From NCBI GenBank assembly GCA_002633005.1, contig NMRA01000494.1, positions 260,878 to 324,877 on the forward strand: 64,000 bases of DNA. Direction: 5' to 3'. Both the position numbers and the translations under genes were made by a program. Shown piece after piece: positions 17,554 to 53,400 of this stretch (its first letter is position 1; the number at the start of each line of letters is the position of its first letter). This DNA is from Phoronis australis. Its lineage: Eukaryota; Animalia; Phoronida. The notes beneath the pieces were generated by a model. The model had not been told where the DNA came from, did no database searches, and worked only from the letters and a program-made list of their open reading frames with translations.

Positions 17554-17556
17554 TGT

Positions 17557-17627
<71 letters not shown>
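17554..17627. repeat. (TG)n microsatellite
   Basis: Direct run. Confidence 0.97.
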
Positions 17628-17628
<1 letters not shown>

Positions 17629-20600: not shown

Positions 20601-20867
20601 ACCTTAACCCATTAGTAATGGTCGTTTAATTCAGCATGGGTCTATGCCTTGAAGTGGCTACTGTAGGCTGTTGTTAAAGCTCAGGGATTAAAATCTTCCC
20701 CTCGTGTACTGAATTTGCTGACTTACTAGCGGAAATGCGGCCATGTAACTGAAAGGTAACGGTGATACATGTACCCTGATGGACGAGTATGTTGGACCTA
20801 CAGTGTCAACATTATATCGTCTCTATTCTGTGAAAAATGAATAATACTCCTGGCCCTAGTTCGAAAA

Positions 20868-21040
20868 AATATCGCAACAAATAATTACTCTACGCCACAA
20901 ATAAATACTTTACATTTTAAAAAGTTACATTACGCAGCAAAAATATTTTAAGCCGTATTACTAATTTTTACGCAGCAAATAATTACTTAACGACGCAAAT
21001 CATTACTTTACGTCTCTAACAAGTATCTTACGCAAACAAA
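20868..21040. repeat. Degenerate ~20-bp minisatellite (tacgcagcaaataattactt-like)
   Basis: About 8 imperfect units visible. Confidence 0.6.
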
Positions 21041-22323
21041 GTGGCAACGTAACGCTGCCCCATTCGGCCAACGATACACCTTGGTGTAACAATGGAGTCT
21101 AGAATTAAATGTCTATAATTATCTAAGCTATAAAACTAGTGTGATGTGAATACCTTAATATCGACCAAGAAGCATGGTACGATGTAAAGTGCACTCATTT
21201 TCAAATTTCAAGATTGGAGGTAACTCCCAAGCGATTGTTGTTCACCCAGTGTGCATTTCCGTTATTAAATTCAGTCCTCCGTCGTTGCTCAAACAAAAGC
21301 TAGGCATTTACCTACCGTGTGTTCTTGCACTGTGAACACCCTGACGAGCGTGTTCACGGTATTTGGGAAAATTAGGACTAGACCAAATAAAATCTTTGGC
21401 CAATAAAGAATGAATTCTCTAGTCAATCAGTGCCAATGGTACACATTATCGCAGACTTCATACTATTTACAATTTTGATGGAAAACATTTCTAAACATAG
21501 TTGTCAACATTCTGGATGTTGACTACTTCAAATTCCACTACACCGAATGTTTGCTACTGCGAAGCTTCGCTAACTTCGAAAGCTCACTACTCCAAGTGTC
21601 AACATTTGCGAAACCTGGGACCGGTCTCCAATCTTTTTACTCGAAATGGAACTCGAAATTAGGTTTGGCATTTTATACTCTACTTTTGGGCGAACTCAAG
21701 GCAAGTGTCTATTATTCTATGCTCGAGTAAACAATAACTTGCGTAGATAATATGTTTCCCTTAGTTCACAGTTTGTAAACCCAATATTAAAGCAATAAGT
21801 TCGAGTTTGAACTCGAAATTTCTGATTGTCTGCTCATAAGACGAAACTGGGTTGAATAAAGTATTGTACTTATGTCCGTCATGTAGTCACCATTTAAAGG
21901 ATGTAGAAGATTTGAATAGTCCTAAAACATTAGTTACGTTGTTTACACGTGATCTCAATTCCAAACACTGCCAATCGTGATTCTTGTATCCACCTAACGA
22001 ATCATCATGAGAAGTTCTCAAGCAGGGATAACATCTGTGGTACTGGTCAGGGCTGCGGCGACCAGCGGGACAGTTTTGAGTTTACGAAAACTGAATGGTA
22101 GTCTCTGAAATTGTGAAGACTGGAAGGGACAAGGTACATGTAGCCTTCCACTTACATGTACATTTAGTTTCGACCAGCCGTGCGTACAGTTCCGTTGGGT
22201 GAGGTCGAGGCGCAGCGGCCCTAAACTACAATCTTAGTCGCGCTGTGAAATGATGCGACCTTGACATGGATTTGATGATTGCAACGTGGCTGATAATATA
22301 AAATTATCCCTCATTCATGTTCT

Positions 22324-22751
22324 TTTAAAAGGATACTAAACCCTGTTATGATGGTTTCCACCAATCCTCGTTCGGTCACCTACTAATTCATCACTATCGT
22401 CACTCTTTCAATTGAAAAGTATACAAACCCGGTTTTGGCTTATTAACAAATACTAAAAGCGACTTTCCTATCCAATTCTTTGAAACAAAATAATACTCTG
22501 TAACGACTTGAAAAAATTGGAAAACTTCTTTCATAGTATGCTAAAGGGACAAGCGTGGCCGCCGCTTTTAGCGAGTTACGCGGCAACTACGATAAAAGAC
22601 CACCCACCAAAGATCATGATGTCCAATTTTTGAGATAGCGGATGTGAATTCTTAGGTGATTTCTGCTTTTAGCTTTCAAGTTTGATGCCAATGCTGCATC
22701 AGCACGTGAGAGAATGAGGATTGGTTGTAATCAGGGTTTAGTACCATTTTA
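22324..22751. mobile_element. Old TTAA-flanked MITE (Kolobok-like)
   Basis: ttaaaaggatactaaaccctg ... cagggtttagtaccattttaa form imperfect inverted ends. An inverted internal fragment recurs at ~23050-23180. Confidence 0.5.
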
Positions 22752-22829
22752 AGGAAAGAATCAATCAAAAGTTCATACACCCCATATCAAGGTTTGGACA
22801 TTGTGATCCTTAAAAAAATACTTGCTGGT

Positions 22830-23047
22830 GGTCTGATACACGTTGTACCAGACGTGCGCAAGCCTTGAATGTGGGCCCATTGCACTGATTACCTGGAACT
22901 ATTTTTATGCTTTATTAATATATGGTTAAAACTGAGCTGAGGAGCTAGAAACCTGGCTCAAGGGTTTAGCAGTGTGACCTGGTGGGACTCGAACCCACGA
23001 CCTCAAGTAAAGAAAGCGTGCACTTTTCAACCAGGCCACACTGCCTC
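22830..23047 (-). mobile_element. tRNA-derived SINE
   Basis: The minus-strand head has A box TGGCCTGGTTG and B box GGTTCGAGTCC. The body is shared with 2360-2482. Confidence 0.75.
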
Positions 23048-24175
23048 CTCATTATGATCCTTGGTGGATGGTCTTTTCCCACAGTTGCCGTGTAATTTGC
23101 AAAAAACGTAGGTCACGGATGCCCGTTTAGCAAACTTTGAAAGAAATTCTCTTTCTCAAATTTTCTGGTTGCCAAGTACATGTATTACAGATCATCATTT
23201 CGTTGCACAAAACTGGATGGGAAAGTCATTTTAGTATTTGTCAATAGGTCAAAACCGGATTTATTATCCTTTGAAACTGCAAGAACGTACTCATTTTTCC
23301 GTATTCGTAAGCCATGCGGGCAATTTCGTATGCGCATGAAATCAATAGTACCCGGACGTTGTTTTTGGTATAGGTAACCACTCATAGGTTTTCGGCCGTT
23401 AAGTACACTTAATACAGACTAGTCGAAATCCGTCCTTAAAAATGCATTGAAAAAAATCTATACACCTTTTATAATTAGCGGAATCTTCGATAAAATAAAA
23501 TTTCTAAGTGATCTTCCAAAACAGAATAATACAAAATATAATCTTACCCAACCCGCTTGCAGGTAACTGCGTGTAACTAACATTTACAGAGTCCCTACAT
23601 AAATGACAATAAAATGTAAACAGCCACGGCACAAAACGCATCCTCTGAATAACATGTTGTTGTTGATTTGCTGTTTCGTGGCAATTTACTATTTTAGCTC
23701 ATTACTTTCTAGTAATCAATAGTTTTACTCTATTATCAAAACAGATTTATCTTGTGAAGAATATGTTTACAGTCTACTACCAACACTACGTAGAATTCTA
23801 GACAAATTCAGGTGCTCTTGACACCAACAGAATACAGAAACTGTTAGGCACCATGACATTATAAAAAAGAAGATAGACTGTGTGAAATTTGCAACCGTTC
23901 AGAAATTGAAGACGAAATATACGTATTACTTAACTGCCCCGTACTTAACGACATTAGACTGAATTTTATACCAGAAATATCCCGACAGCATACTGACATT
24001 GAAAACGTCAAATACTTGTTCAAAACAAACTCTGGGAATCTTTTGAAAAGACTATCGTTATTTATGTTGAAGGCTTAGGGTATTAGACAGGAAACTCTAA
24101 TATTGTAACATGTAAATATGTATTGCATATCCGGACATGAAATTGCCACCTACACCAAATGTTGCAACGTAATAT

Positions 24176-24270
24176 GTCTCTCTCTCTCCCTCCCTCCCTC
24201 NNNNNNNNNNNNNNNNNNNNNNNNNNNNNNNNNNNNNNNNNNNNNNNNNNNNNNNNNNNNNNNNCTCCCT

Positions 24271-24307
<37 letters not shown>
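24176..24307. repeat. (CT)n/(CCCT)n microsatellite spanning an N-gap
   Basis: Direct run on both sides of the gap. Confidence 0.9.
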
Positions 24308-24309
<2 letters not shown>

Positions 24310-25758
24310 ATAGTTGAACGGGCTCTTCACGCCAGCTCCTTCAATAAAAAGTTCTTCCATTTGAATGTGACGCCATCGTGCACATTATTCACACAGTATT
24401 ATCAACTTGTGCAACAAATTAAGTGGGACAATCATATTTTGAAATACAAAAACAAAATGAGCTATAGCGTCAAATTTCGATGTAGCCACTGACATATGTC
24501 TTATGGTCTTCATCGCAGCTCCCCTTAATAGCATCTGCGCGTGCGTTTTACTGGAACTTTTATGGAAAGTTATTGACAACAACTCGTTAACCGACATAAA
24601 AAGAATTCTTTAAAACAATAGGATAATTTGATGACTTTTACATTAATTCACCCTTACCGGTGCATTATGAGCCCTGATGAGGGAACAAAAGTAAACTCGG
24701 TGAAAACTTTGATTTATGCTAAGAATCACAGATGTCCTACTTTATGCACTTTAGAATACCAGATTAATGAATTTGTCAACATTTCAGAATAAAAATGCTC
24801 CTAATGACCCCATGATTGCACCAAATGACCTGAAACTTCATAATTCAAACTCAATTGCAGTTATTTAACAGATGTGTAAGAATTTCAATTGTCTACCTCA
24901 AAATCTTAGTTTGCACTCATTGATCTTTGACCTCTGGCTTCTGATTAGAAGGCCATGTTGGTTAGTACAATAGGTTGTTTGATTGGCATGTACATGTAGG
25001 TTTACACCAGTGTGCTGAAATTGAACAGAGGAGCCATTGTAGTCTAGACGCATTTTCAGAAAAGAACCCCGTTTTGTGTTCTAGAAGCATTTTTAGTAAC
25101 AGTTGGGAACTAGACTTGTTCACATAATCAAGGTATGGCGACTTCAACTTACCATGTTCTCAAGCCGAATTTTGCATTTTAAACATCTAATTAGCATAAA
25201 CAAAATGGCGGCAAAATTGTTAAGTTCAGATGTAGTTTCGTAATACAAATCATAATATACCATTTGAAATAGTGCAACGCCTCACCTGTACATATTCTTA
25301 TAAATACTTCGTGTGCAATAAATCACTTATGCAAACTAAACAATTGCAACTCTAAAACCTAATTAGGCAAATTAGGTGCCGCCATTACGATACAATGCAA
25401 TTTTTATCTGCAGGCTAACTTGAAAATTGTGTTATACTTATATTTTCAAGGTCAACAAGCATGCTAAACACATTTCTGAACCAATTAATTTCATATTTAT
25501 TGGGTTATAGATGTATACTCATCGAATGTGGAAAATACAGTCGTTAGTCTGCAATGCTCGTTAAGCAAAGTGTAACTATTTTGACAGAATATAAGGACAA
25601 ATGTTTATACTAACCCGTTATCTTTCATTCATAAAAATCAAAATATTTATTGTTAATGAATACACCATTAGGTTTTCAGTTACATGAATTGTTTTCAGGC
25701 CTGCTAAAAAATAGCATTCACTTTTTGGTACTTTTTAACATGCCTGAAGCCAGGCAAA

Positions 25759-26500
25759 TCAAACTGTTTGCATACAAGGAATCTGATCATGAATGTGCTG
25801 CTGGGATGTGCATAATGATATGCAAAGAAGTCCAGATTTCTTGCATTTGCATTGTGTACTGTTGCGTTGTTTCTGGCATGCAAACAATACCATCTCAAGG
25901 CAGCTGTCTGGGATAGAACTGTGTCTCATCAGTATGGGCTGCAAGTTTGTGTGTGTGCCTCCCATATCAGAGGGTGCTGGGAGCTCAGGTATGGGACAAT
26001 AGGCATATCGCCATACCTTGACCTGCACTCTCATAAAATGGAAACGGAGGGCATTATACGTTGGGGGAAGGACTTCTGGGTTCACTGGTTTGGAGAATAG
26101 TAAATAGCTTGCTAAATCTACAGGTCTGTTTTGGTCGCGTTGAATATTCTACAGACTAATACTTCTGAAGACGTCAAAAGTTTCTCAGTGAGCTCACCAA
26201 TACGCAGGTTCTTATTTAAGCAATCCGTCATGCTCAAGGACCACCTTCCATAATGATTTTTTCATGTGATTGGCAACGTACGAGATGGTGCCAAACCCGG
26301 TCACGGCATGAAAGCAAACAACAAACAAGGATGTTGCTTAGTCTCTTAGTAGTTTGTAGAAAACTGCTTCAATAGGTATGTATCGACGTTTCTTTGATGT
26401 GCCTGACATCATTCATATGTGCGCACATTGCAATTGTTGGAAGTGCGACACGAGAAGCAGTAGAACATCAGTGTACCTGGAAAACATGACTGACTGTGGA
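25759..26500 (-). mobile_element. Academ-type transposase C-terminal remnant (XPG/FEN-like nuclease + Cys-rich finger)
   Basis: YTDVLLLL...GTSKKRRYIP...FHAVTG (XPG/H3TH-like), then LPPTYNALRFH...P.P..G...IPDSCLEMV...CKCKKSGLLCISLC. Contains stops and frameshifts. Confidence 0.7.
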
Positions 26501-30600: not shown

Positions 30601-32019
30601 ATACACTGTATGAGCTCGTACATGTAGTTCTTCGTCTGTAGTGTTTCTAAGCGGATGTAACAAGCACCAGTATTTTCAAATCAATGAAAAGTTCAGGACA
30701 ACGAGAACTCCCGACGATTGGTCATTAACATTGTTGAATTTGGTTTTATCAGCTCATAGTCTTGGTTGTTTGAGGTGTGGACTCGGTGAAAAACTTAACT
30801 CATAGTCAGGCTTGGTCTTGATGGTACAATGGTCTTAGCTTGGAAATTATATGTGTGATCTATCAACTTTACTGGGAGAACATTTAATAAACGTACTTTC
30901 CATTTAATATTAACTTAATTTCGTCCGCTTGATGTGCAGTCAATTTTTGGCCATGTCCATTGGATTTTTCCTTTCGTACGTCATTCTTGTGTGGTTCAAA
31001 ACTTCCATCACTTTGCCAGAATCTTGCGCCGACTGTCCCCTCCAACAGCTCACCCAGCCCCTGATGTTTTCATAAGCTGCCCAGTGCGATATGATGAAGA
31101 GCTTATTGGTCAAACCTTGAAATTTACGAAGCTGAATGAAGCTCATAAAGTCCTGTAAGACGTACACAGTAGGTATTTAAGAACTGACACTCCACGTTTC
31201 TATGTCGGCCAAGCTCGCTAACAAAAGTTCGTCTTACTTGTTAGTATCTGGATATATAGCTCGGAGCCTACAGTATCTACTGACAATAAACTGGTTTAAC
31301 TTTCAATTAAATGTTATCCTCTCAATTTAAATTTCTGCGAGTGTTCCACTGCTGAATTTTGGGCTTAGCTGAGCTGGAGGTATCTCAGCAGCGTCAAACT
31401 ACAGTAGTTCTTCGCCAAACTAGTCCTTAATTATGCAACCAAAATGACAGCCTCGTTTACGCCATCAGTTAGTAAATCTATAGTTGAAATTTTCCACTCT
31501 AAATAACAGCTCAATACATACAATGTACATAATGAAACAGAAATTGGCTAAATTTCGAATGACAGATGTCTAGCTTTTTCCTTACAGCTGACATTATATA
31601 TAACGTGATGCATCGTTGGTGAAACGTAACTTGCAGTACCGATCGTAGATAACAGTGCAGGTACTGTACATGTATTTGTGTACATGTGTAGTCAGAATAA
31701 GCCATTATTCTTCTAAAAACGCATGTATGCGTAAGAAATTCTCCTGTAACTGTGTGGGGTGGGTGGGAGTGAGGTAGACGTGAGCGCAACCTCTCCCTGC
31801 CCAATCGTACAGTTTAACATCTGCCACAGCCCGTTTCACCAGAAATTGTTTAAAACTGCACCTCCGTCGACAGCAATTACATCCCTGTACAATTCTTCTT
31901 TTTGCGACCCCTCCTTTGATTGATTCTACAAGATCATAAAGACGAATTAAGCATTGTAGGGGAGGGTGTGTGCAAAATCTTATTCCGCTTCGTCAAACCT
32001 GTGCTCTGTGGCCACTCGA

Positions 32020-32027
32020 TATATAAA
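32020..32027 (+). promoter_or_regulatory. Candidate TATA box of defensin gene
   Basis: TATATAAA upstream of a putative non-coding exon that ends at donor GAAAG|gtaatt (32212). The acceptor before the ATG exon is at 32344. Confidence 0.4.
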
Positions 32028-32357
32028 CTAAAGCAACTGCCCATTCTTAACTTACAAGAAGTTTTTCAAATCCACAACTCCCAATGGCAATTCTAAAAGA
32101 GACGCGTCAAGATACTTGACTATTAAACTGCACCTTGAAACCTTGGGGACACAGGGAGTACAGGAGACTTAATATCCACATTTGTTTAAGTTTTACATCA
32201 CAATACGGAAAGGTAATTGCTCTATGGAGGAGGAAAACATTGCGAACACTTATTCCTATTTCCTTTTAATCTAATGTGAAGCCCTTTTTTTTCTTCCTTT
32301 TATATCGTGATATCTCCGTAACTGAATCTTACATTGAATTACAGAAAACTAGAAGCC

Positions 32358-32439
32358 ATGAAGTGCATCGCAGCATTCATTGTATTGATACTGGCTGTGG
32401 GTTGTATCCACGCGCTATATAAAGATGGCAGAGAAGGAG
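32358..32439 (+). CDS. Defensin-like precursor, coding exon 1 (signal peptide)
   Basis: gccATG context. MKCIAAFIVLILAVGCIHA|LYKDGREG is a typical signal peptide. Donor GGAG|gtgaga, phase 1. Confidence 0.85.
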
Positions 32440-33069
32440 GTGAGAACAAAAGCTGTCAATGGTCTGCGCTAAGCTCTGCAAGAATTTAGCATGTAAAATT
32501 TTAAGTGATCACTTGCAGTCTTTTTAATGCCTGGTGTATTTCGTTTTCGAAAGTTTCTTGTGATTTCAAAATGTGAGTATGGTAGAGCTTGGGACTTGGA
32601 TAAATAGATGGTAACACTTAAAATTAAAAACTATATTTGTCCTACAGTTTAACTGGCTAAAAGAAAATCGTATTAGGACTCCTAATCTAATAAAATCGAT
32701 CTCATAATATTTCTTACCGCAATGGTATTCTTTTTCCGCTATCAACTAAACTATCGGAACCATCAATTACTTAAAATCTTTTTAAAGTTTTTTGGGTTTG
32801 ACGACCTTGAAAATTCTGATTTCGAAAATGACCCATCTTTGAAATATTTGTGATTTCAGTTCACAACTCAATATCACACCAGCGTGCTCATGTTTCATAA
32901 CCCCATGACGCTTCGGTTGAGAAGTCGACGATACCTTATATAAGAGTATCGGGTACTATGTGGCACTGTTTAGTATAGTACCACGTGGGTTCATAATACT
33001 AAATGGTATTGGCTGATTGCCTACCAAGTGAGTCAAGGATCTGCAAATTCAATAAGTACCAAATGCTTA

Positions 33070-34900
33070 AAAACTGCCAAAGGGGCAAATATTCTGCATA
33101 GGCGGTGTTATGGGGAGCAGGGTGATTGGTAGCGGATGAGGGGGGAGGCTCAGACCCAAATTGCGGTGGGATCGCGTTCCCGGTGTTTTTTTTTTTGTTC
33201 GTTTTAGTCCATCTACAGATATTCCGAACAGAAGGTCCACATCCCACCTGTGCACACGAGGCAACATGTTGCCCATCCTTCTGGTAGTCTAGATCCCCCA
33301 CTGGTGGGTACACTAAACAGCCTACGGGGCTATAACGCCCTGGCAATCAGGTTATAGACAGACTGAGTGAGCATACATGTACCAGCCAGGATGAGAAACA
33401 TCGGAAGTAACGTGGTGTTGTGGCTTAGATTGTGCGGGAAAAATAGAAAGGCAGTTGAACAATATAATATGGTGATATACCCCAAACAAGTCTACCATCT
33501 AAGAGACACTTATCTAAGCATAGTTGAGAGAGCTATCGACCATACGCCAGAGGTCAACCAGCAGTGAAAATGTCTTTCCCAAAAGGTAACAAGTGGACAT
33601 CATAACATGAAGCAACAACCAGGCGTCCGTTGTAATGTCAGTTTCCCTGATATACAGTTGCATCAAGGATGAGTTATAAACGTCTTAGCCGCCGAGGATT
33701 TGATTCTGGCCCTGGCGGGGTTCCTGACTTCCTTCATACCTCTTCGCCATTGTAACCGTGGAAGTATTGCAGAACAAATCACTGAGTTGTGTGGGAATTT
33801 GTTTTTGAATTCTGGAAATATCTCCCTTTAGAGTGGTGGGTAGGCCATGTAATTTGGTGTGACTGATTTTGTTCCCACCGCAGTGCAGAATGATTTACAA
33901 CGGCTGTTCTTCGAGTCATTTCATCGCCCACAGTTTGGGGATGAACTAGTTACACTGTAAGCCTCCCAAGAGTTGACAAAGATATTCTTTATCCCAATTG
34001 ACTGTAACCACAAGTTCGTGTCACCGGGACTTAGCGTGGGGGAGCAAACGCCCGTTTGATGATCGATGATCCCAGAATCCACAACCAGTCCAAATTTTGA
34101 GCCAGTATTTTTTCGGAGTTAATACAAACATAGTTATATATGCGTGTGAGTGTGTAATCATCTGCCCGGTAGTCTGATTTGTTCTGGTGTCCAGTCAGCA
34201 GTCGGCTTGCCGCTGTGGTAGTATTAATGAAGAATGAATACGCCCGATATCTGCCATGTTCCACATCCAGTTTCTCCATTGCCAAATGGAGGATAGCGGT
34301 AAACCGATAGTGAGTTCTGGCGAAGGTGACGTCGTACGCTTAAAGATCTCCATTGTTTGGGCCAACCAACTCTGCTATTCGGGAAAAAATGAATAGCTTA
34401 GGCTGTCTTGAAAAGCCGCGTCTCAGGTGTTGAGGAGCACATTAGAAGGAACTAGCTGTTAACTATGTGTCACATTACATCAGGAGTAATCAGTGGTCGT
34501 GCGTCAGCAGCTTTTGCACAACGTCTTAAGCTCTCCAGTGTTCCGGTGACGATGGAGTTGGTGGTAACGTCCGGGTGATCGTCCGCCTTGATGAATTGAA
34601 GTACACTCTTGCCAGGTATGATTCGACGGGGCTCACAAACCCCAACATGTAAGAAAAGTACAAATCCAGATGGTCAATTCCAGGAGGCCAGCACAATGTT
34701 ATGCTGTTGTCTAATCGAAATAAATGACTGGAGCCCTTTTCCGTACTCTTCAGGAGTGTTGTTGGAGATGGATGCTCGGATTAGTCTAGCTGCCTCATTG
34801 TGAGGATTTTTTGCAGAAATGGGTGAGGTGTTTGCTCTGGCGATGCGTTTGCCTTTAGTGCTATCGTTCAATATCTTTCCAGCTTTATGAAAGAGATAGC
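33070..34900 (-). mobile_element. DIRS/Ngaro-like tyrosine-recombinase retrotransposon remnant with SGNH-hydrolase-like ORF
   Basis: Minus frames give AARLIRASISNNTPEEY (YR N-terminus), RPLIT, and YRAYSFFINTTTAA (degenerate HSFRIGAAT). They also give WILGSSIIKRA and ICSAILPRLQW (SGNH-like). Many stops. Confidence 0.65.
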
Positions 34901-35276
34901 ACCGGCAACAGGGTTGATCAAGCGCCAGGATTATGACTGACGGCTTAAAGGCGAAGGCAACCTTTTTCCATGTCATTTTGAGCTAAAATAATTTGGTTGG
35001 TTATCCTAGACATATTTTCCACTTAATTACAGCTTTTCGTAATTCTATAAATTACTCGTCCGCTACTCCGGAAGTGACGTTTTAGGAGGCAAGCTTTTCC
35101 CGCCACTTGGTTTTGCGTTGACTTTACCGTGCGAATCTGTTCTATTCTACTTTTGTTTTGTGCTGTTTTTCAACAATTGTCGCCACCACTTTCCATCGGC
35201 GACTGTTCTGCGGCAAGATAGGTTAGAGCTCAACTACTTTGGATTTAGGGATTGTTTAGTGCGTTGTCAGCTGAAA

Positions 35277-35575
35277 ATGGCTGGAGTCGGTGACCCGTAT
35301 CACAGTGACAATAGTGTGAGTAACGGAGACCTTGTTCACAACAGTGGTGACGAGGAACTTTTCGGACATTCAGTGGGTGGGTACATGTTTGAGCCCGAGT
35401 ATAACGAGGCAGAGTACGCACAGGCACAGGCAGCTGTTGAGAGAAACGAGGCGGCTACTGAGGACAGACGTGGTGACACATCTTGATGCAAATGCACTGT
35501 GTGCGTTGTTATGCCTACCTCAATGGAATGCTTGTGCTGTTCAGAGTCCAACGAGGCCAAGCCACTACTGGACAT
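35277..35575 (+). pseudogene. KolX / P2X7-ballast-like (nanor/ZCD) protein 5' fragment
   Basis: GYMFEPEY...RRGDTS*CKCTVCVVMPTSMECLCCSE. The TGA sits at the conserved W of WCxCxxCxxM...ECxCCxE. Confidence 0.75.
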
Positions 35576-35579
35576 GGTT

Positions 35580-36381
35580 AAGTGGACCTCCGGCATAACA
35601 CGGATAGAGGAACAATTGTCCCACTTACCAGAGTGTCCCGCGACACACTCCCACTGGATGGTAACCTGAGCACCCAAACTGCTTACATCGTGTCGTGTGA
35701 CTCCCTCGCCACACACCTGGCACCTTCTAAATAGCTCCAACACTTTAGACAAGTCCACAATAAACTTGTCAAAGTTTGGCTCACCGATCTGTTCACTGGA
35801 CGACGAATTGTCCTCTTCGCTGGGTGTCGAATTGAGCCTGTAATCACTCCCACTACTCAATATCGCTGCAGGGCTGCTTAGAGGCTCTGGGCTGGAGAAA
35901 ACAGCACAGGGCGATTCACTACTGGTTCCAGGAATTGCACGCTCTGGGGTACGTTCGGAGGCACGGGTGACACTAGATGTAGTGCCTCCACTGGCTCCAG
36001 TCACTGTACTGGCCACAGCTCGCGAGGCTTCTCGCTTCAAAAACACACTTCTCAGGGGTGGCGACGGGACACTGCCGGGAATCAACACAGACGGAATGGC
36101 ATCCTTCTTCAGACGTTGTTTCGCAGGGACCTTCATCAGTTCAGCGTACAAATCCCTTTCGTAATCGGACGACAGAAAGTGCTTGCCACACACAGGGAAA
36201 TTCTCCACTGCTTTGTGCGTTGCGTGGACGGGTAACGTTGCGTTCTTCACACGAACGAGCCAAGTACGGCGAAGTATGTATCGGAAAGCGAAGTGTGCAT
36301 CGGAAAGCGATGCAAAGGTACTCCCAAAGCGCGCGTGAGCCGATAATTAGTACATCCTTGTACACACCAACAGTGTGGCAT
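35580..36381 (-). pseudogene. Kolobok transposase 5' fragment with THAP domain
   Basis: MPHCWCVQGCTN...LHRFP [frameshift] RRTWL...VCGKHF...YERDL...LKKDAIPSV, then FIVDLSKVLELFRRCQVC...WECVAGH...W. Truncated. Confidence 0.85.
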
Positions 36382-38696
36382 GTTGACTTACCAGTAAATG
36401 AAAGCAAACGACGACGGAACTTAACACAACCGAGGCAGAACCATGACTGACTCGGCAGCTCTCACAGTCAGACCATATGAAAAGAAATTGGCGCGAAATG
36501 CTTGCCTCCTAAAACGTCACTTCCGGAGAAGCGGACAAGTAATTAATAAAATTTCGAAAAGTTGTAATTAAGTGGAAAATATGTCTAGGATAACCAACCA
36601 ACCTTATTTTAGCTCAAAATGACATGGAAAAAGGTTGCCTTCGCCTTTAACTGATAAATCAGAACGCAGCATTCTTGACACAACTTCGTCTTCGTTTCCA
36701 AGTCGCCATTTTACCCGACAAACAACAAGTTGTCGCGTAGAACTTATTTTAGTCTATAGCTTAGGAAATTGTGCGACGAGAATAGTGAAACGGTTTTGAC
36801 ATGGCGTGTGTGTTATGCAGCTCCAAAAGAAAACCCGTTATTTTTGGGCGTCTCCTATTCCAAAAAGTGATGTCGAAAAGTGTAACCTATGCATCAATGT
36901 GTGTGAACGTCCACAAGAGCAGCTGAACTTGGCAACGTTGCTTGATTTCTCGAAGGTTAAACACAAATATACTTGTTTTTATTTTGGTGGCTATAGTGTA
37001 GTCCTATCTGATTTCGACTCCGGAGTTTCACTCGTCTGGCAACTTTTGTATCGACACCTGCTGGATCTCAGCCGTAGTCTAGCGGTAATCCGAAGAAATT
37101 GCTGTATTTAAGATTATTTTCACCTAATAGACAACGTTTTGTTTCGTAGCGGAGGTAATGTAACATTTTTGTTAATCATATTCGCGTACCCTGGCGTTCA
37201 ACTGAACTTCTCTACAAAATTGAGAGAGTCGATAGGCACAGGGAAGGGCACTGCATTACTGAACTCAAAGCCTTGTTCGAGCTGCGGTCACGAAAAAATA
37301 TACAGCTCAATTACTTTTTGATGAGAATCTATAGAATACGGTCCACCTGTAGGGCTCATTCCGAATTTATTCAAACATTATATTTAGATTTATGAAGAAG
37401 AATTTGTTATTTAGTAAATAGAAATTTTTGCCACTACACCAGACTTTTCATTTTCTGTAACCATACCACAGCTTAGTGATCACGCTACGTTTAAAACTAA
37501 CTGAAAGCTACTTTTATGGTATGAAACTACGAAAATGCGAAGTTCATCAAAAGCTAGGCCAAACTTAAATGTCTTAATGGCGCAATTACGGCGATTTCCC
37601 TGCATTAACTTGACTTGGACACAGCCAAAAGTTTCGTTATAAGATTAGAAATGTACAAACAGTGCTATCGACTCTACTTTCTTTACTAAGGGGGTCCCAC
37701 CAAATCTGGCCTTCTTTTCATTTGGTAGAACTTAGAAGATGGCGGATAAAATCATCGGTGAATTTTCAATGATTTTGTTCGACAGATCACGAAATCTATC
37801 TCAACGTACAGATAATTCGGCATATGCTAACCTAATCACGTGGTGTTCTAAGCCAAAATTAATACCAGTCCTATGATCTACGTGTACATCCCGATGGCAG
37901 AAACAGAAGTTTTTCAGTGATCCAATTTCACAACTCGATTGATCTGAGGAGTAGCTAAAGTTCAATCAGTCGATTCGAAAGTTGGTAAAACCGGATGACC
38001 TACATGTACATGTAAGATAATAGTCATTTTGCCTACACTGTTGTAGCTCTGATTGTGACGCAGGTGAATTCTTACGCCGGAATTCAAAACTTGTACAACT
38101 TTCTTCTTTCAAAACAAAATCATGAGGGATCTACGGAATGAATTTGGTACAAACTTTTCAATACAACTTTTTTGTGATATCACAATCTAAGCGTTCTACC
38201 GACGTTTACCCCGACTATAAACAGTAAATTTCCGTCGCGGATTCTGTGATCTCCCTGAGTAACAGAGACAATGTTATTCGTGATTGACTTGTTATATCAG
38301 GATATAAAGCGTGGCGAAACCAGTCGGTGCTGATTATATTGCCATACAGTGTACTTAAGAGTGCTCACCACAACTATCCTACACAATCCATAGTTTGTTG
38401 AAATACCACTCCAAATCAGTCTGCACACGCCAGAATACGAAAAGCTTCCAAAAATAGTAAGTTTTAAAACGTATAATAAGAATCCAAAACTTTTTCACTC
38501 AAATATTTAACATTGATGTTGTTGTATATGGAATTTTTCAACCGAGCGATAACGGGAAAAGAGGCAATTTTGGAAGTTATAATTGAAAGCTTGAGCTCGC
38601 CGTGACAATCAAATTGCACACACCACAAATTGCACGGACGCTCGCGAGAGTGAAGTACGACTGCATTTGATAAGAGACTCATCCTTATTATTTCAG

Positions 38697-38807
38697 TTCC
38701 ACCGTCAAGTCCCGACAAAAATTGCCAGAGTATCAATTGCTTCTTGAAATGTAGGATGATCGGCAATAACGGGGGATACTGTGCCGCTTCTGGTTGTATC
38801 TGTGCAG
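38697..38807 (+). CDS. Defensin-like precursor, coding exon 2 (six-Cys CS-alpha/beta core)
   Basis: Acceptor ccttattatttcag and donor GCAG|gtacgt bound a 111-nt phase 1-1 exon. It reads VPPSSPDKNCQSINCFLKCRMIGNNGGYCAASGCICA = C-x4-C-x3-C-x9-C-x4-C-x-C with a GxC gamma-core. Confidence 0.88.
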
Positions 38808-39794
38808 GTACGTAAACAAACTGTACAGAACATAGTATAATAACACAATTGCTTCTGTTCCGCAAAGCTGTGTGAAAAGTGCGCCTCAGTGTTTAAAATG
38901 ATCAGCGGCCAACACCAACAATTTTGGTAATTTTTTATCTAAAAGATGCACAACTTAACGTAGCAGAATTGTGTAGTAACTTGGCAAGAATCACCACTTC
39001 CTTAGTTACAAGTGTTATGGCTTTGTGTCTGCCAACTTCCCACACCTCACGTGTGCTGTCACCCCACGGTGTCGACCCTAGTACCACCTGCACCTCGTCA
39101 ATAGATCATTGAGGCAGGAGAAAAGCGTGCATTACTTTTAGGCAAAACGGGTAACTTTAAAAAAAACTACATGCATACCGCGTCACAGCAGCAATTAATA
39201 AAAACACTAACTTGGACCTATTATGCCTGTTTAGCCCATCCGAATTTTAGACATACGATGGAAGGGTAGACATCATAGGACCAGTGTGGAAAATCACGAC
39301 TTTGCGAGATTACGGATATTATGCAAGATTTTGCAATGTATTTTAAGTGGGAACACGTGATTTTTGGTACATGTACTGTAAATGTTTAGACTACAGATAA
39401 CTACTGAACTTCACACTGGAAAAGGCATGCGACGTATCGTGTGCTTCAGAATCTAGTGGTAGCTTATTAAACATCAACGCGGCGTCTGCAAGATGATGAA
39501 ACACAATTCCGGACCAGAGTTTTCATGAAAGTGTCCAAAGAAGGGACTCAACTAAGTTCCCTAAATTAATGAGGACTTGTGACTTGGAAAATACTGATTA
39601 TCATGTTTAGTTTTCCTACTAAGTCAAACCGAGCGTGAACCATACGTGTAGGTTGAATTCTCAATATTATGTAAACGTGAACGGACGTGCAAATATAGAC
39701 CTCAAAAGTCCGTCTGCACGCCACCTATACATATATATGTAAACATTGTATATTACATTACCCCCCCCCCCCCCNCCCCCCCCCCCCCTCCTCT

Positions 39795-40070
39795 CCCGTT
39801 ATCCCCCGTAATCTCGAGCCCTCGTGGATTTTGAAGAATTATCTCCTAAGGGGTGTTAGCCACGAAGGGATAATTCTTCAAAATCCACTAGATGAGGTGG
39901 ATAACGACTGAGAACATGTAAGAAGCAATATATACCACATACTGAACGATAAACATTGCAGTGAATCGGTATACGTACCTTTCTCCATTCGCCTAGACTT
40001 TCTACGTCAGAGGCTCGGGGTCTGAAGAACGTGTAGTGTTTTTTTAAGATACGCCAAGTTACATTGTATT
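39795..40070. mobile_element. Foldback/palindromic non-autonomous element, copy 1
   Basis: Hairpin cgttatcccc...gtggattttgaagaattatc...gataattcttcaaaatccac...gataacg. The flank 39930-40070 matches 46750-46880 in reverse orientation. Confidence 0.75.
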
Positions 40071-41109
40071 CTTGTTAAAATAATTCTTTTGCTCAAAACA
40101 AAATGAAAATATAGCTTGCTTTACACCTTATCATGTCATTCCTCTCAGTGTCTGAAGTCCAGGGTCCGTAAGTTGTGGTAGGTTTTTACGGACGACCACT
40201 TAACAAGTGTGCATGAGTTTGTTTGAGTTACCAGCATCGCATTTGATTTACTGCAGTGATAAGCCCTCTGGCTGTCTGTGAGTGAAATGTGCCTGAGAAT
40301 TTGGTTATTTAAACTGTTGCATCTTTCTCAGATACTTTTGATATTTTATCTTATGTCAACCACAACAATATGTTTTTGGTCAAAATTGAACCCCATTTGG
40401 CAAAGATACGCCTACATATCCGTAATAAATTAAGGTACACATTCCCACGGAATTGTATTAATGTGTATAAAGTTAATGTTATTACATTTCGTTCAATTGT
40501 AGTGGGCTTTAGAGTGATTTTTAAAATTGTCACAAGACTTTACTGTGTAAACATCTGCTTTCCAGAAAATTTTAGCAACGCACAAATTCGACTTCCTGAA
40601 TAAAAAAGTGAAAGAATACTTCAACACTTGGTTTTTGTTGAGACCCTTGATAGTGGAATACATAAAATTGTAACACCATGCATCACTACCAAGAAATAAA
40701 GCTAGCAGTTCGGATAGGCCAAATCCTCTATGCACACATTAAAATAGTTCCATTGAAGAACGCCACTGCCTGTGACCTGGCATAAAAATGTTTTCATGCT
40801 GGGTCTTGGTTAACAGTTGTGTAAGCAACCTATACTCTGGTGGACTGAACTCAGACCCTGGTGGACTGAGCTCAGACCCTGGGCGAAATGGCTAAGCTTC
40901 CGCCGTAAAAATATCGTCTGTTAAAGTAGGATACCACTGGTTACAAAGTATAATATGAAAGGATCTCAACCATATGTTACACGTATTTAAACTAGAGATC
41001 GATGATTTACGCGCACATAATATACACACCGACACAGGCTCACACACACGCGCACGCACGCATTCAAACGCACACACACATGCACACACAGGCATTTCTG
41101 TGTTTAAGC

Positions 41110-41330
41110 GGTGGTCCCAATAGCGCAGTGGCTAGCTAGAACGTCTGCACTTTTATTAGAAGGTCCCGTGTTCCCGGGTCGGTGGTGGCAGAAATGTTTT
41201 TGGAATTATCGTTATTAGGTCACTTGATGTGGCCAACAGGTGATATACAGATCAGTTCAGCTACACAGGTATACCCCAAATTTGGCTCCTGCCTAGAGGT
41301 GCAAAAATAGCACCCAGTCCGAACAATCAT
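41110..41330 (+). mobile_element. Degenerate tRNA-derived SINE-like fragment
   Basis: A-box-like TAGCGCAGTGG and a weak B-box-like gtgttcccgggtc. Confidence 0.4.
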
Positions 41331-41895
41331 CTAATAGTTGCCAAGACAACTGAAGCAAGAAAGAGTCAGGTTTTGGCTTTGATGCAAATTGGGAGTGCAC
41401 TCTACGTTAAATTGTCAAGATTATTGAAAATAATTAGGAATCCTTTCATGTAAGTCCCTATCTATATTCACTGAAATAAGGGCGTCGTTTTAGTTATATC
41501 ATTACAATATGTTATTAGTCAAAGAGGGCATCTTAATAACGATAAAGATAAAGATAAAATGGCGGGAAAAGATTACGTCTGTAAGTAAAGAATGGCACAA
41601 CTACGCAAACGATTTAGGGATCTTGATTGAGCCTTTTCTTGGTATTTTTCATGCAACTGGGAACATGCGGCTTCTCAACATTGAGAGAATTACTTTCAAT
41701 TAAGTTCCAAAAGTTGTTATTTAAGAATTTGTTCGCATTCGGACATGTCGACACTTTTGCTGGAAATCTATTCATCTAACTGAAAATATGAATTGCATTT
41801 TGAAAATTCTTAACTCTACTTCTGTTTTTTTTCAATTTGTACTCGAGTATATCACCACTGTAATTGCGTAATTACCGTTCAAATTTCATTTTCAG

Positions 41896-41906
41896 GCAAA
41901 CGATAA
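41896..41906 (+). CDS. Defensin-like precursor, coding exon 3 (G-K-R-stop)
   Basis: Acceptor aaatttcattttcag. The phase-1 join gives GGC AAA CGA TAA. AATAAA at 41964-41969. Confidence 0.75.
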
Positions 41907-44442
41907 GCCAACAACATCGATGACATTGACACAGTTAAATAACTGTACTGATGACTAAGGCAAAATAAAGATCTTGTCAAAGCGACTTCCATTTGTCTCT
42001 TTATTGTTGCACATCTCGTTCCCATATCGATGGCTGCGAGTTTGGATTTCTACTGTAGCATCCTCAAAACGAGGCTCTAGCTAGACAACTGAACATTGAT
42101 TGCTTGGAAAGGAGTTGGCATCAGATCGCTCAACAAAAACGTGTATGCATCTTGAGTGGAAATTGTTGTACTGCTCACACTGTGACGCTTGTCTCGACTA
42201 CCTAAGGGCCCACCAAACTGGTGCATATTTAGACATGTCATTTTTGGGCGATTATGACAAAAAACTTCCATGGCTTTAATAACACCTGGTTAATCACCAG
42301 TAGTAGTTGGCGTCTACAGACTGGTCGCAATAGTCTTTCTAAGTCCATTCAGAGGTGGTTTCATTACATTGAAGTTAGTGACAGATCGTTACTGATTGAA
42401 ACCAAATTTAAGTGTTTTCATGTTGACTTGCTACGACCTGGTTCGGTGAATTTAAGCACCGTGCTCTAAAGCCCTGCCAATCTAACCAAGCCAGCGTGCA
42501 CTTCTCCTCTGAGTAAGTAATACATGTACATGTAAGCTTAGGTCAAAGGTCAATTGGAGGGCTCAACTAAAACTTAATTCCTTTGACGGAATGTGGGTTT
42601 ACAGTCACTTTGAATGATTTGAAAAACTGTTTGACAAGTAAATACCGTGAAACCTAATTATGTACATTGTATGTGCATGCATGAAGGCATGTCTTCCGTT
42701 CGACAAAAGATGCATGGATATGTTTGCATGTTGCAGAGAACATTTTTAAATCGCATTTTTGTTTATACCCGGATGTCCCGCTTTCTATCCAGAGTTCTGA
42801 TCTTAAATGCAGTTGTTCCGGTTTTTCGTTCTCAAATTTTGACAACTTTACAAGACGTTTCAAAACAACAGTGTCTGTCTCTTTAGTCATGAGGAACCCT
42901 TTCCAGCTGAAAATTGACCGTCGGACGGCCTTCGTCCGACGGTTGGAGTTTGCTAATGCGATCACAATAGCCCATTGAATTCAGTCCAGCTGCCTGGGCT
43001 GCTTGGTCACGTACGTAATCCTTTAATGACATCTCATTATGCCATAAAACTACGTGCCTGTCGACTATTGGCAAAAAAAGAAAGTTTATTTTAAAAATAT
43101 ACCTGCCTAACCGAATTCCTCGCAAAAATCTAAGCATTTTAGAACTTTGAATTTTCTTTCTAGGCCAGAAAATAAAGTTTTTATTAATATAAAAATTTAC
43201 CACCTTGTGTACGAGCAGAGCGCAAGAATTTACAAAGGGTATATTGTGATTCGCCGCCATGAGGCAGCTTATAATTTCCTNNNNNNNNNNNNNNNNNNNN
43301 NNNNNNNNNNNNNNNNNNNNNNNNNNNNNNNNNNNNNNNNNNNNNNNNNNNNNNNNNNNNNNNNNNNNNNNNNNNNNNNNNNNNNNNNNNNNNNNNNNNN
43401 NNNNNNNNNNNNNNNNNNNNNNNNNNNNNNNNNNNNNNNNNNNNNNNNNNNNNNNNNNNNNNNNNNNNNNNNNNNNNNNNNNNNNNNNNNNNNNNNNNNN
43501 NNNNNNNNNNNNNNNNNNNNNNNNNNNNNNNNNNNNNNNNNNNNNNNNNNNNNNNNNNNNNNNNNNNNNNNNNNNNNNNNNNNNNNNNNNNNNNNNNNNN
43601 NNNNNNNNNNNNNNNNNNNNNNNNNNNNNNNNNNNNNNNNNNNNNNNNNNNNNNNNNNNNNNNNNNNNNNNNNNNNNNNNNNNNNNNNNNNNNNNNNNNN
43701 NNNNNNNNNNNNNNNNNNNNNNNNNNNNNNNNNNNNNNNNNNNNNNNNNNNNNNNNNNNNNNNNNNNNNNNNATGCAGTTGTTCCAGTTTTTCGTTCTCA
43801 AATTTTGACAACTTTACAAGACGTTTCAAAACAACAGTGTCTGTCTCTTTAGTATTAATTTTTCTCAGACTACTCTTTTTATTAACATAATTATCCGTAA
43901 AACTGCGTTCCCAAATACCCACACACACACACACTACATACACTGTACATGTATCGGGATCACTAAATTCCATACTCTAATACAGTGTTAATGGTTACGG
44001 TAACACACACCACATACATGTATTGGGATCACTAGTTTTTTTTTTACATTCTGATACAGGGTTAATGCTTACTTTTTTTCCTTCCCGTTCTGTGGACATT
44101 TTTTAAACTATTTAGATTACAGGATCTCTTTGAACAAAAATTGGCCATTTTGGGCCAAAATATTCATGACAGTAATTTAAAACAATGACCCCCAAAAATT
44201 GAAATAACCCTTTGAACCAACCTCACCGGGATGTATGAACGGACTCGCCGAATTACATTTTTATGGGTCAATAAAAAGATCTGAATTCTGGACGGACAAT
44301 CTTTCTGAAAATGTGTACGCTGGCTCTTGAAGACAAAGCGCTTTACAACTAAGAACAGTTGTTCACGTATTTTTAATACTGTGCAAGTGTGCATGTATTT
44401 ACACAGAAATTCCAATGGTGGATAATCTGTAGAGGGGATTCT

Positions 44443-46336: not shown

Positions 46337-46872
46337 GACTTCATCAAGAGTGAAAATAGAATAATTAAATGAGCACGCGCAAAAATCGCACGTTCAGCAA
46401 ACCGCATTGTACTGTGCTTATACGTTACGGAAAATAAGACACATAATTTCCATAAAAATGATATCTTAATTCCGTGAAATTTTTTCTCATGTCTTCTTAC
46501 TTGTAAATCACCGATCTCTAGTTTGAATGCGGGTATCGTGTCGTCAGGATCTTTGACTTGAGAATTATATTCAGTTACCAGTGGTAACCTATTTTAGCAG
46601 ACAATCATTTCCCGGTCGAAGCTTAGCGTGAAGAAAACGTGTTTTAAGCTATAATAGTTGGTAAACCATACTTTATAAATTCAATTTATTTCTATAATAT
46701 TTAAGTTTTCAATTGGTTTTGAGTAAAAGCAATATTTGACAAAAATAACCGGGATTTTCTTAAAAGGTCACGACCTCCGACCCCGGCCTCTGACATAGAA
46801 AGTAGTTACAAAGCCGTGGAGAGTCAGAAAAGGTAAATCGATTCATTGCAATGTTTCTAGTTTAGTAGGTGG

Positions 46873-47049
46873 TATATATAGATTATTACATGTTCTCAGC
46901 CGTTATCCCCCCTTATCTAGAGCCCTCGTGGATTTTGGAGAATTATCACCCTCGGGGCTGACGCCCCTCGGGCGATAATTCTCCAAAATCCACTCGGGCT
47001 CTAGATAACGGGGGATAACGACTTCGCCATGTAATAATCTATATATATA
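46873..47049. mobile_element. Near-perfect ~175-bp palindrome flanked by (TA)n, foldback element copy 2
   Basis: tatatagattattacatg...ctagagccc..gtggattttggagaattatc / gataattctccaaaatccac..gggctctag...catgtaataatctatata. Confidence 0.85.
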
Positions 47050-51014: not shown

Positions 51015-51624
51015 CTAATGTAAAAGAATCTCTAGCCATAACAGTGTAGATATAGTCACATACTTCACGTGAGCCTGTGGCACCCCGTTATATGCGTAGT
51101 CACAACCCTCGTCCTTCGCCTCAGCCTTTTCCGTCTCAACTGCACGGCTATCATCATTGTTTAACACCGTGCTTCCGTCGCTGGTTATACTGTTGCTTGG
51201 TTGTTCACTACCGGATGAAAACATATCGGTCATCGTTTCCGATGGGCTGTTGTGCGTCGTGGATTCTTTTGTCGGTCGCCTTGATGATGCATCATCCTCT
51301 TTAAGCGTTGTCTCATTCGTTGCACCAACGTTTGGCACTTCACTTGAGGTGCTTTGGTAGGTTGCCGTTTTGGGTGATCGAATTGTTGGGCGTTCTACGT
51401 GTACGTCATTGGCATCTGGGGTCGTTTTGTGTCTGTCTGTCGCCAAAATTGACGTATCTGTTGTACTGCGCTGTGACGTTGCCTTTTTGCTGGATGGTTC
51501 GGGAGGAAAGTCATCATAATGGATAACTGGGCTAACACCTTCCAGTGGTGACTTTGGTCTTTTAGTAATCAAACTTACACTAGGGGGCGTAAGTGTAAGG
51601 TCGAACATAGCGTATGTGTGGAAC
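51015..51624 (-). CDS. SAARP-like gene, terminal exon (Ser/Thr-rich stalk + hydrophobic GPI-like tail)
   Basis: Acceptor ctattttcgtag, phase 2. Reads FHTYAMFDLTLTP, then ~170 aa rich in S/T/P/D/E, ending NGVPQAHVKYVTISTLLWLEILLH*. AATAAA on - at 50968-50973. Confidence 0.8.
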
Positions 51625-52435
51625 CTACGAAAATAGTGTTTTGCATTGACGGATGCATTCTTTAAATAACTCAATTATTTTCAATAAATAATGGTGATAA
51701 ATACAATATTTTTAGTGAAAGCTACGCCTATGTACATGAAATCGGCTGTAGAGAAATATTTGCACATGATTAGTGAATTCCGTTTTGGCACTCAACATCC
51801 GCACTACCGTGACAATGAGACACTTCATTTTCAAGCTCGCCTGCCTTTGAACTAAGAGCCGCTGTAAAGTATCATACACGTCGATGGAGGTTCAAATACA
51901 GTGCGTCTCAAAAATGTTAACAAAAATATTCTAAACTATGAGCACCAAGGTATTGTTTAACTGGAAAAGATTGGTAACTTTCTTGCTGCAGAATTCTCGA
52001 AGTTTATTTTATAGTGTATAATGTACATGTAAAAGTTAGAAAATGTCTCACACTTAAATGTTACCTCAGAAAACTGAACATGTGAGTTTTATTTCCAAAC
52101 GCAAAACCAGCCTCCCGTTCAGCAATGCTAGGACCTTGCTAAAAAGAAGACTTCCTGAGATTACGTGACATACTGTCGTGTATTTTAAACGAGAACACAG
52201 TTTAATACTCCTGAGTTAGCAGTTGTATTGAAGAAAAACTACATGTATTTGGTATTTTCTCTTATAATGAATTGATTTTAGAAATTCAAAAACGTCTACT
52301 GTTTACTTTTCAAATTTAAAAAGTCGTGTTGGTCTTTAGCCTAACTTATTGTTATATTTTTACTTTACAACTCGAAAGACCACAAATATCTCATCCAGCG
52401 AGTCCAGAGACGCTTATGAATAGCGACTACCTCAC

Positions 52436-53279: not shown

Positions 53280-53400
53280 TGACGTATCGCCAGGATTTTG
53301 ATTGGCGGTTCACTGACCAATCAGAACGCAACATTTTTGACACAACTTCGGCTGCGTTTCCAAGCCGCCATTTTACCCGACAAACAACACGTTGTTGATG
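53280..53400 (+). repeat. Dispersed repeat; uninterrupted homolog of the sequence split by Kolobok at 34945
   Basis: Aligns to 34925-34944 joined to 36651-36735. Confidence 0.8.

Follow-up and report, generated by a model that had tools for sequence, protein, structure and literature searches.

Introduction

CS-alpha/beta peptides are defined by a CX3C motif, a CXC motif and a third pair of cysteines (PMC5308243, PMC5116183), and in the genes that PMC5308243 describes a phase-1 intron follows the signal peptide. In oyster defensin genes, as the relevant part of PMC3390580 presents them, the last two residues are split off by a second intron, 14–53 copies are found per individual and the products bind lipid II, and mytilin genes are described as having four exons (PMC7168163). 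Plectasin is described as docking on the membrane by a long hydrophobic N-loop (PMC8877149), while the alpha-KTx toxins are marked by a Lys-Cys4-X-Asn signature, with toxins active without the dyad also noted in the same account (PMC8252768).

Here we describe a locus within a window of 64 kb, the whole stretch of DNA that was analysed, that probably represents an intact gene of four exons, coding for a secreted peptide of predicted CS-alpha/beta (cis-defensin-type) fold acting in host defence against microbes, and a divergent copy whose siblings are strongly transcribed. We take the gene to be real and likely to encode a host-defence peptide, and it seems to add one more member to a familiar class, insects and bivalves having already shown this fold and this gene layout. 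It matters as a small-exon defence-peptide gene backed by a strongly expressed family; antimicrobial leads can be drawn from families of this kind, and the locus offers a test case for exon-module evolution, with a leader exon, a phase-1-flanked cysteine exon and a C-terminal micro-exon.

Gene structure and splice sites

Three tiny coding exons and a putative untranslated first exon span approximately 10 kb of the plus strand. Exon 1 (32345–32439) contains 13 nt of UTR, an ATG at 32358, an inferred signal peptide of about 19 residues and a short spacer, its 82-nt coding part (32358–32439) being directly followed by GTGAG, a phase-1 donor. Together with this donor, a Lys at residue 2 and a hydrophobic core reaching 3.8 on the Kyte-Doolittle scale are signal-peptide features, and when both strands of the window were screened with an ad hoc filter, written with exon 1 already seen, for ATG exons that resemble signal peptides and end in a phase-1 donor, exactly one was returned. 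Exon 2 (38697–38807, 111 nt), preceded by TTTCAG and followed by GTACG, carries a short Pro/Ser-rich stretch and the whole six-cysteine CS-alpha/beta domain between two phase-1 introns. The coding part of exon 3 (41896–41906), also preceded by TTTCAG, completes a Gly codon and then reads Lys-Arg-stop (TAA), a likely amidation signal.

An earlier, sequence-only reading had claimed these three exons with GT-AG sites and phase-1 junctions, and direct checking of the sequence bears this out: exon-by-exon reading places both junctions 1-2 and 2-3 in phase 1, with Val and Gly as the split codons, and no second copy of any exon was found in the window. That reading had not included the non-coding first exon, the expressed paralogs, the likely amidation signal or the Kolobok-type insertion in intron 1 described below. 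By an ad hoc score, the exon 2 acceptor ranks 4 of 369 within intron 1. Because its acceptor ranks only second of 233 AG sites by the same kind of score, the last exon, which lacks RNA support, is the weakest part of the gene model.

Expressed paralogs and the 5′ end of the gene

Four RNA runs (X1–X4) were chosen by species label, and 18–19% of each raw run was read. Reads mapped to exon 1 alone (32342–32416), on the sense strand and at 80–90% identity, with 866, 1596 and 2499 paralog reads in X1–X3 (68–226 per million), stranded and with no indels listed. Reads of several types at this level of identity point to an expressed paralog family, to a missed non-coding exon and to a TATA box at 31595. 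Read by hand, the paralogs' fixed coding differences number nine, four synonymous and five replacements, of which four exchange one hydrophobic residue for another. Nucleotide 82 is G in all five read types that reach it; beyond this position two of the five continue with TT as in exon 2, and one with GTGA as in the intron. The paralogs' 30-nt read ends stop short of any cysteine domain.

The sequence-only reading had proposed RNA-seq across the junctions 32439/38697 and 38807/41896, and no exon-joining read was listed for either in the four runs. No read matched exon 1 at 95% identity or above in the portions read, and exon 2 depth at 90% identity or above was almost nil (0.1 in one of the four runs). 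With no exon-joining read listed and none of at least 95% identity on exon 1, both the expression of this copy and its last exon are putative. The claim that the gene is intact holds for the DNA, with no transcription of this copy seen in the RNA examined.

The gene model could be right and this copy nevertheless silent, tissue-restricted, dispensable (absent from the sequenced individuals) or a young pseudogene, with the siblings doing the work, as might be suggested by 68–226 sibling reads per million against none at 95% identity, by a 1.7-kb transposon within intron 1, and by the variation of bivalve defence-peptide genes in copy number and presence or absence that PMC3390580 and PMC10138031 describe. 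We regard this as quite unlikely, as the reading frame, six cysteines, six splice sites, TATA box and AATAAA are all intact, the RNA comprises four runs only, and restricted or dispensable genes can still function.

For the preferred reading of an intact defence-peptide gene, a fourth, non-coding exon (exon 0) likely ends at 31660. This exon, likely non-coding and placed at 31630–31660 on the plus strand with an approximate 5′ boundary and a CAG/GT donor at 31660/31661, is based on an 18-nt motif at the paralogs' 5′ read ends, whose single match in the window (31640–31657, two mismatches) compares with matches in 6 of 100 whole-window shuffles. With the exon ending there, the promoter TATA is probably that at 31595–31603 on the plus strand, found by a TATA scan and likely the true core promoter, which sits 37–45 nt upstream of the stretch matching the paralogs' 5′-UTR read ends. 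TATATAAA at 32020 would then be intronic and was rejected as promoter, as no good donor lies downstream and the paralog UTR maps upstream. The AATAAA named at the other flank stands, at 41964–41969 on the plus strand, and is followed by a T/GT-rich tract.

Cysteine motif and predicted fold

All six cysteines are in exon 2 and none in exon 3. Re-read from the exons, their spacing of 4-3-9-4-1 reproduces the pattern first described, C-x4-C-x3-C-x9-C-x4-C-x-C with GxC, and comprises the CX3C, CXC and third cysteine pair of the superfamily. Gly-Tyr precedes the fourth Cys, placing a gamma-core GXC (Gly-Tyr-Cys) within predicted strand 26–29. The strict motif occurs once across six frames of 64 kb, and chance was rejected as its source, with 2 matches in 100 block shuffles and none with GxC.

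Sequence searches and folding used single exons or in-frame genomic stretches as queries. The 36-aa exon-2 frame scored 20.1 bits (E 6e-4) against Pfam Defensin_2 (PF01097), just below the cut-off of 20.4 bits, and a 53-aa frame scored 18.7 bits; of the two families suggested earlier for HMM searches, Defensin_2 thus came close, and Toxin_2 gave no match even at E up to 10. The best PDB sequence matches were plectasin and its variants (E 0.02–0.1), across the helix and GGYC hairpin, with further weak matches to insect defensins and short scorpion toxins; fungal defensins ranked first. For queries this short, blanks carry little weight: a word search of 5.8 billion clustered proteins, with the exon-2 frame and the exon-1 read-through as queries, found no relative, and HMMER against 1.84 billion representatives returned none at E 0.001. 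Metagenome scans gave no exact match and confirmed none of 591 candidates.

The single-sequence AlphaFold2 model (pLDDT 79, pTM 0.50) has a helix at residues 11–20 packed on a two-stranded sheet (26–29 and 32–35). Its best Foldseek match was 1r1g (probability 1.00, rmsd 1.2 Å over 29 columns), followed by insect defensin A and nasonin-1; probabilities to 1r1g, 1ica and 2koz were 0.92–1.00, with no match at E 0.001, and the neighbours were CS-alpha/beta peptides almost throughout. The VIA comparison gave Z of at most 5.0, a range that VIA regards as common, Atlas leads were to Toxin_2 (0.87–0.88), and a viral fold library yielded none of 21 at E 0.001. The closest folds overall were those of BmBKTx1 and nasonin-1. 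The structure prediction called for earlier thus yielded the expected helix and hairpin, and this model, with the sub-threshold Defensin_2 score and the weak sequence matches, supports the CS-alpha/beta reading.

Comparison with related peptides

Nasonin-1 of Nasonia vitripennis (PDB 2koz) aligns 27 residues against 27 with an rmsd of 1.2 Å and 37–39% identity, shares the short n-loop and, as PMC2853521 describes it, has a phase-1 intron after the signal exon; with similarity at a non-significant E of 0.8–1.5, the likeness does not imply orthology. Here too a phase-1 intron lies between the putative signal peptide and the mature domain, as in invertebrate defensin precursors. Unlike the nasonins, which have no propeptide in the account given in PMC2853521, this precursor places 16 residues ahead of the first Cys, counted from the inferred cleavage site, and has Gly-Lys-Arg on an exon of its own. 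The defensins of oysters and mussels (Cg-Defh, MGD, mytilins) share a tiny last coding exon (Cg-defh), a four-exon structure (mytilins) and multicopy families, and MGD-1 and Cg-Defm match in fold with weak scores, but the mollusc peptides, as PMC3390580 presents them, carry eight cysteines and lack an N-terminal spacer. The locus encodes six cysteines, not the eight or ten of mollusc defensins, mytilins, myticins and macins.

Plectasin and the arthropod defensins (PF01097), the best sequence matches, share the helix and GGYC hairpin, but alignments begin at plectasin residue 9–13, leaving its long hydrophobic N-loop unmatched; lipid II-binding defensins (plectasin, Cg-Def) combine membrane contact by N-loop and C-loop with contacts to lipid II, and here the hairpin side aligns and the N-terminal part does not. 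The alpha-KTx toxins (BmBKTx1, Toxin_2) provide the closest match in fold (Z 5.0, rmsd 1.3 Å, 31 residues), the same cysteine span and an equally short n-loop, with four residues between Cys1 and Cys2. Membership of alpha-KTx was rejected, as exon 2 reads Tyr-Cys-Ala-Ala around its fourth cysteine, with Tyr where the Lys-Cys4-X-Asn signature has Lys and Ala where it has Asn.

Probable function and target

Transcription would start from the TATA box at 31595, and exons 0, 1, 2 and 3 would be spliced in that order. The signal peptide would be cleaved near residue 19, a short pro-region possibly lost, Lys-Arg trimmed and the C-terminus amidated via the Gly, and three disulfides (C1-C4, C2-C5 and C3-C6, as in the fold matches) would tie the helix to the hairpin. 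Exon 2 has a net charge of +2, and the weakly cationic product would act at the bacterial envelope via its Gly-Gly-Tyr-Cys hairpin. Given an antimicrobial role, lipid II, a precursor of the cell wall, may be the target, as for plectasin and the oyster defensins, at somewhat below even chances, and other envelope or membrane targets, as the short-loop nasonin-1 suggests, would be somewhat favoured. The spacer is neutral in this copy and acidic in the paralogs, and the low charge and neutral spacer may mean weak or altered activity.

The peptide had been called antimicrobial or toxin-like, and of these two the antimicrobial role is favoured because the alpha-KTx signature is absent. An ion-channel-active defensive or venom peptide working like short scorpion toxins would fit the four-residue first loop, an aligned length equal to that of BmBKTx1 with no gaps implied, 1r1g as top structural match, the Toxin_2 leads from Atlas and the likely C-terminal amide, but the missing signature, the same short loop in antibacterial nasonin-1, the first rank of fungal defensins among sequence matches and the lack of any sign of a venomous host make it very unlikely.

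Expanded, highly expressed families with acidic spacers are typical of antimicrobial precursors. This family is of that kind, and the hairpin is most like those of antibacterial defensins, which leaves even less room for a secreted CS-alpha/beta peptide that does not kill microbes and instead serves immune signalling, the response to wounds or the inhibition of enzymes, a reading to which the low net charge of +2, the non-antimicrobial roles that PMC7203481 describes for myticins and macins, and the remark in PMC5116183 that activity is not tracked by the name 'defensin' might otherwise point. Least credible is that the exons do not form one transcript, with exon 1 a leader cassette joined to another mature domain in the siblings, or exon 2 spliced to another last exon (such as at acceptor 40149, which scores slightly above that of exon 3 by the ad hoc score) or read through into the intron to a stop, since the unjoined reads, the paralog reads ending before the mature exons and the rank of the exon 2 acceptor are set against a single signal exon and a single cysteine exon in 64 kb, ordered, in phase and on the same strand, a first junction that fits the paralog reads, and an exon 3 with TTTCAG, Gly-Lys-Arg-stop and AATAAA 68 nt on.

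For the favoured host-defence peptide, a specialist would find the locus unsurprising unless its host were a deuterostome, fold and layout being known. In the literature surveyed, only big or beta-type defensins are listed for invertebrate deuterostomes, and an open-access word search found no cis-defensins in deuterostomes, which is not proof of their absence from print. It appears unlikely that the sequence comes from an invertebrate deuterostome (lancelet, acorn worm or echinoderm) and that the locus belongs to an expanded family of cis-defensins there, highly expressed, amidated and with six cysteines; were it true, CS-alpha/beta defensins would extend into the deuterostomes and their loss in vertebrates would become datable.

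Other features of the window

Intron 1 contains a Kolobok-type DNA transposon copy (34945–36650) with TTAA at both ends and terminal inverted repeats of approximately 170 bp starting AGG. A TTAA target duplication, RR termini and a THAP domain are the Kolobok features given in PMC6004289, and all three were found, the last as a THAP-like ORF on the minus strand that scores below the Pfam cut-off (21.5 bits, E 4e-4; cut-off 23.9). The element is likely non-autonomous, as no catalytic domain was detected in it. Rfam gave no match, and a word search of the literature for the TACATGTA motif returned nothing relevant. Among 144 further ORFs, one had a Pfam match above cut-off, to a piece of a C-type lectin, and a TLDc exon was also observed, with one protein match at 37%.

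Exon structure and coding potential

The sequence-only reading had proposed three small exons with GT-AG sites and phase 1 throughout, and these are present with canonical donors and acceptors: exon 1 at 32358-32439 (82 nt, + strand, donor GTGAG), exon 2 at 38697-38807 (111 nt, + strand, acceptor TTTCAG, donor GTACG) and exon 3 at 41896-41906 (11 nt, + strand, acceptor TTTCAG), which ends in a stop. Direct reading of the sequence places both junctions in phase 1, confirming the exon observation. When the exons are translated separately, exon 1 begins with Met-Lys and runs through a hydrophobic core into a short polar end, while exon 2 gives the Pro/Ser-rich start previously described as an N-terminal extension and then six cysteines with the claimed 4-3-9-4-1 spacing, Gly-Tyr standing immediately before the fourth Cys to make the GxC. 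This cysteine motif occurs once in the six frames of the 64-kb window; 100 block shuffles yielded two such motifs, neither with GxC. Across both strands of the window, an ad hoc filter devised after exon 1 had already been seen picked out that exon alone as starting with ATG, resembling a signal peptide and ending at a phase-1 donor.

The weak point of the gene model is exon 3, which completes a Gly codon and continues Lys-Arg-stop. Of the 233 AG sites that follow exon 2, its acceptor ranks second by an ad hoc score, behind 40149, and the exon had no RNA support in the four runs bearing the same species label. It was preferred over 40149 because Gly-Lys-Arg-stop results and because the AATAAA claimed to flank the gene, found at 41964, follows it together with a T/GT-rich tract. 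A basic residue pair is removed during peptide processing. Amidation requires a C-terminal Gly (PMC10608444).

RNA reads from relatives of exon 1

From each of the four runs, 18-19% of the raw data was read for a mapping at 90% likeness over 31000-42800; a second mapping used 80% likeness over 31900-32680. At 90% likeness, the spliced-read check turned up no joint between the exons among the joints listed for the four runs (11 weaker joints lay outside the list), three runs had a depth of 0 in the exon-2 bin against 0.1 in the fourth, and the bulk of reads fell on an intronic transposon. At 80% likeness, 866, 1596 and 2499 reads were aligned in the three read-counted runs (68, 141 and 226 per million records read), along with 8 contigs, nearly all of them sense-strand and confined to exon 1. 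Only 2, 2 and 18 of these reads were 90-95% alike to exon 1, and none in the 31900-32680 mapping reached 95%. The reads show that relatives of exon 1 are expressed; as several read types are present, they most likely come from paralogs and point to an expressed family.

The main read type, read by hand, carries 9 fixed coding differences from exon 1 and no listed indels; four differences are synonymous and five are replacements, of which four exchange one hydrophobic residue for another and one changes His to Gln. Nucleotide 82 is G in all five read types extending that far, and beyond it two types continue with TT like exon 2 and one with GTGA like the intron. The spacers of the paralog types hold 2-4 acidic residues, whereas that of the copy in the window is neutral. 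The mature domains of the paralogs are unseen because the 30-nt read ends stop short of any cysteine. The paralog reads support exon 1 and the position of the first junction; they do not support transcription of this copy. In the contig-counted run, sibling contigs matching 32357-32416 had word depths of 13,000-25,000, which suggests a very abundant transcript if that run is RNA.

A probable fourth exon and a probable change of promoter

The 5' read ends of the paralogs have one match in the window, at 31640-31657 with 2 mismatches; the same motif was matched in 6 of 100 whole-window shuffles. A TATA box lies upstream of this match at 31595, a CAG/GT donor follows directly at 31660, and an acceptor is present just before 32345. 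Given this arrangement, the gene likely has four exons, one of which the sequence-only reading missed. Its candidate TATA box, TATATAAA at 32020, would then fall in an intron, and the promoter is probably the TATA at 31595.

Fold and family

Motif, profile and model agree on a CS-alpha/beta peptide, as had been proposed, with no single score being strong. The exon-2 frame matched Pfam Defensin_2 at E 6e-4, though its 20.1 bits fall just below the 20.4 cut-off; Toxin_2 was not listed for this frame in the Pfam search. Among 16 sequences from a PDB sequence search (E up to 10), plectasin and its variants were best (E 0.08-0.3), followed by a charybdotoxin chimera, insect defensins, nasonin-1 and BmBKTx1, with nasonin-1 and BmBKTx1 each aligning 27 residues to 27. 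In the fold predicted by AlphaFold2 from the single sequence (37 residues, pLDDT 79, pTM 0.50), residues 11-20 form a helix and residues 26-29 and 32-35 form strands. With an E limit of 10, Foldseek returned 152 matches, none of which reached E 0.001. Nearly all of the best 50 of the 152 are CS-alpha/beta peptides; BmBKTx1 heads them (rmsd 1.2 A over 29 columns), followed by insect defensin A and nasonin-1. A second structure aligner agreed, with a modest top Z of 5.0. Scorpion short-toxin clusters came up in the ESM Atlas at 0.84-0.88 and serve as leads only.

The gene appears to join a known class; to the sequence-only reading, which is supported, come a probable change of promoter, a likely added exon and an expressed family. 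CS-alpha/beta genes generally, like many others for secreted peptides, carry a phase-1 intron behind the signal peptide, and having one is no proof of shared descent (PMC5308243). Oyster hemocyte defensin genes, present in 14-53 copies per individual, have their last two residues split off by a second intron (PMC3390580), and mytilin genes have four exons (PMC7168163); both peptides have eight cysteines, whereas the Phoronis australis peptide has six. Protein word search, HMMER and metagenome scans with single-exon or in-frame queries gave no database relatives of the exons, a blank that is expected because such peptides are short and unannotated. Deuterostome groups are absent from the reference figure of PMC5116183, and for lancelets the portions of PMC7203481 and PMC10608444 drawn on here mention big defensins alone; the literature searched gave no deuterostome cis-defensins, which is weak evidence.

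Antimicrobial or toxin activity

The peptide would be secreted, processed and amidated, with a putative disulfide pairing, and of the two roles offered by the sequence-only reading the antimicrobial one is favored. Its hairpin resembles that of plectasin, whose N-terminal part is unmatched, and its short loop is the same as in nasonin-1. Plectasin (PMC8877149) and oyster defensins (PMC3390580) bind lipid II, and nasonin-1 was active against two Gram-negative bacteria only (PMC2853521). That the peptide is instead a toxin like the short scorpion toxins is the weaker reading because the Lys-Cys4-X-Asn signature is absent from exon 2, yet some toxins are active without this signature (PMC8252768).

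Other features of the window

The window is 39% GC with a CpG observed/expected ratio of 0.84, and TACATGTA, at 32 copies, is its commonest non-microsatellite 8-mer. Together with the TLDc, C-type lectin and Kolobok-type features described below, this composition would fit several groups of marine invertebrates: molluscs, other lophotrochozoans, lancelets and acorn worms. A Kolobok-type element at 34945-36650 carries a THAP-like ORF as well as inverted repeats of about 170 bp, and its relatives show heavy RNA read coverage on both strands. Some reads jump the entire element (joints 34944-36647), suggesting that it is nested in another repeat that commonly occurs without it. An 87-bp repeat (36647-36733 and 53309-53395, 90% alike), where many loose read ends occur, adjoins its right end. 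A second, weak THAP match lies at 60846-61118 (- strand, E 0.047), and related hairpin-like repeats at 39796-40109 and 46706-47047, one of them within intron 2, are likely a miniature inverted-repeat element. An 81-bp near-identical duplication (42807-42887 and 43773-43853) flanks an N gap at 43281-43772 and is possibly an assembly overlap; other gaps lie at 24201-24264, 39775 and 58286-58969.

On the - strand, a cysteine-rich open frame of 129 aa (25759-26148) has no Pfam match and presumably resembles transposon-associated CXC proteins, and a Thr/Ser/Pro-rich mucin-like open frame of 219 aa (51015-51674) is without a meaningful Pfam match. A TLDc coding stretch at 10619-11377 (+ strand, PF07534, E 2.8e-17) is 37% identical to the nearest longer protein found, and a C-type lectin exon at 4841-5092 (- strand, PF00059, E 5e-6) likely marks another immune-type gene.
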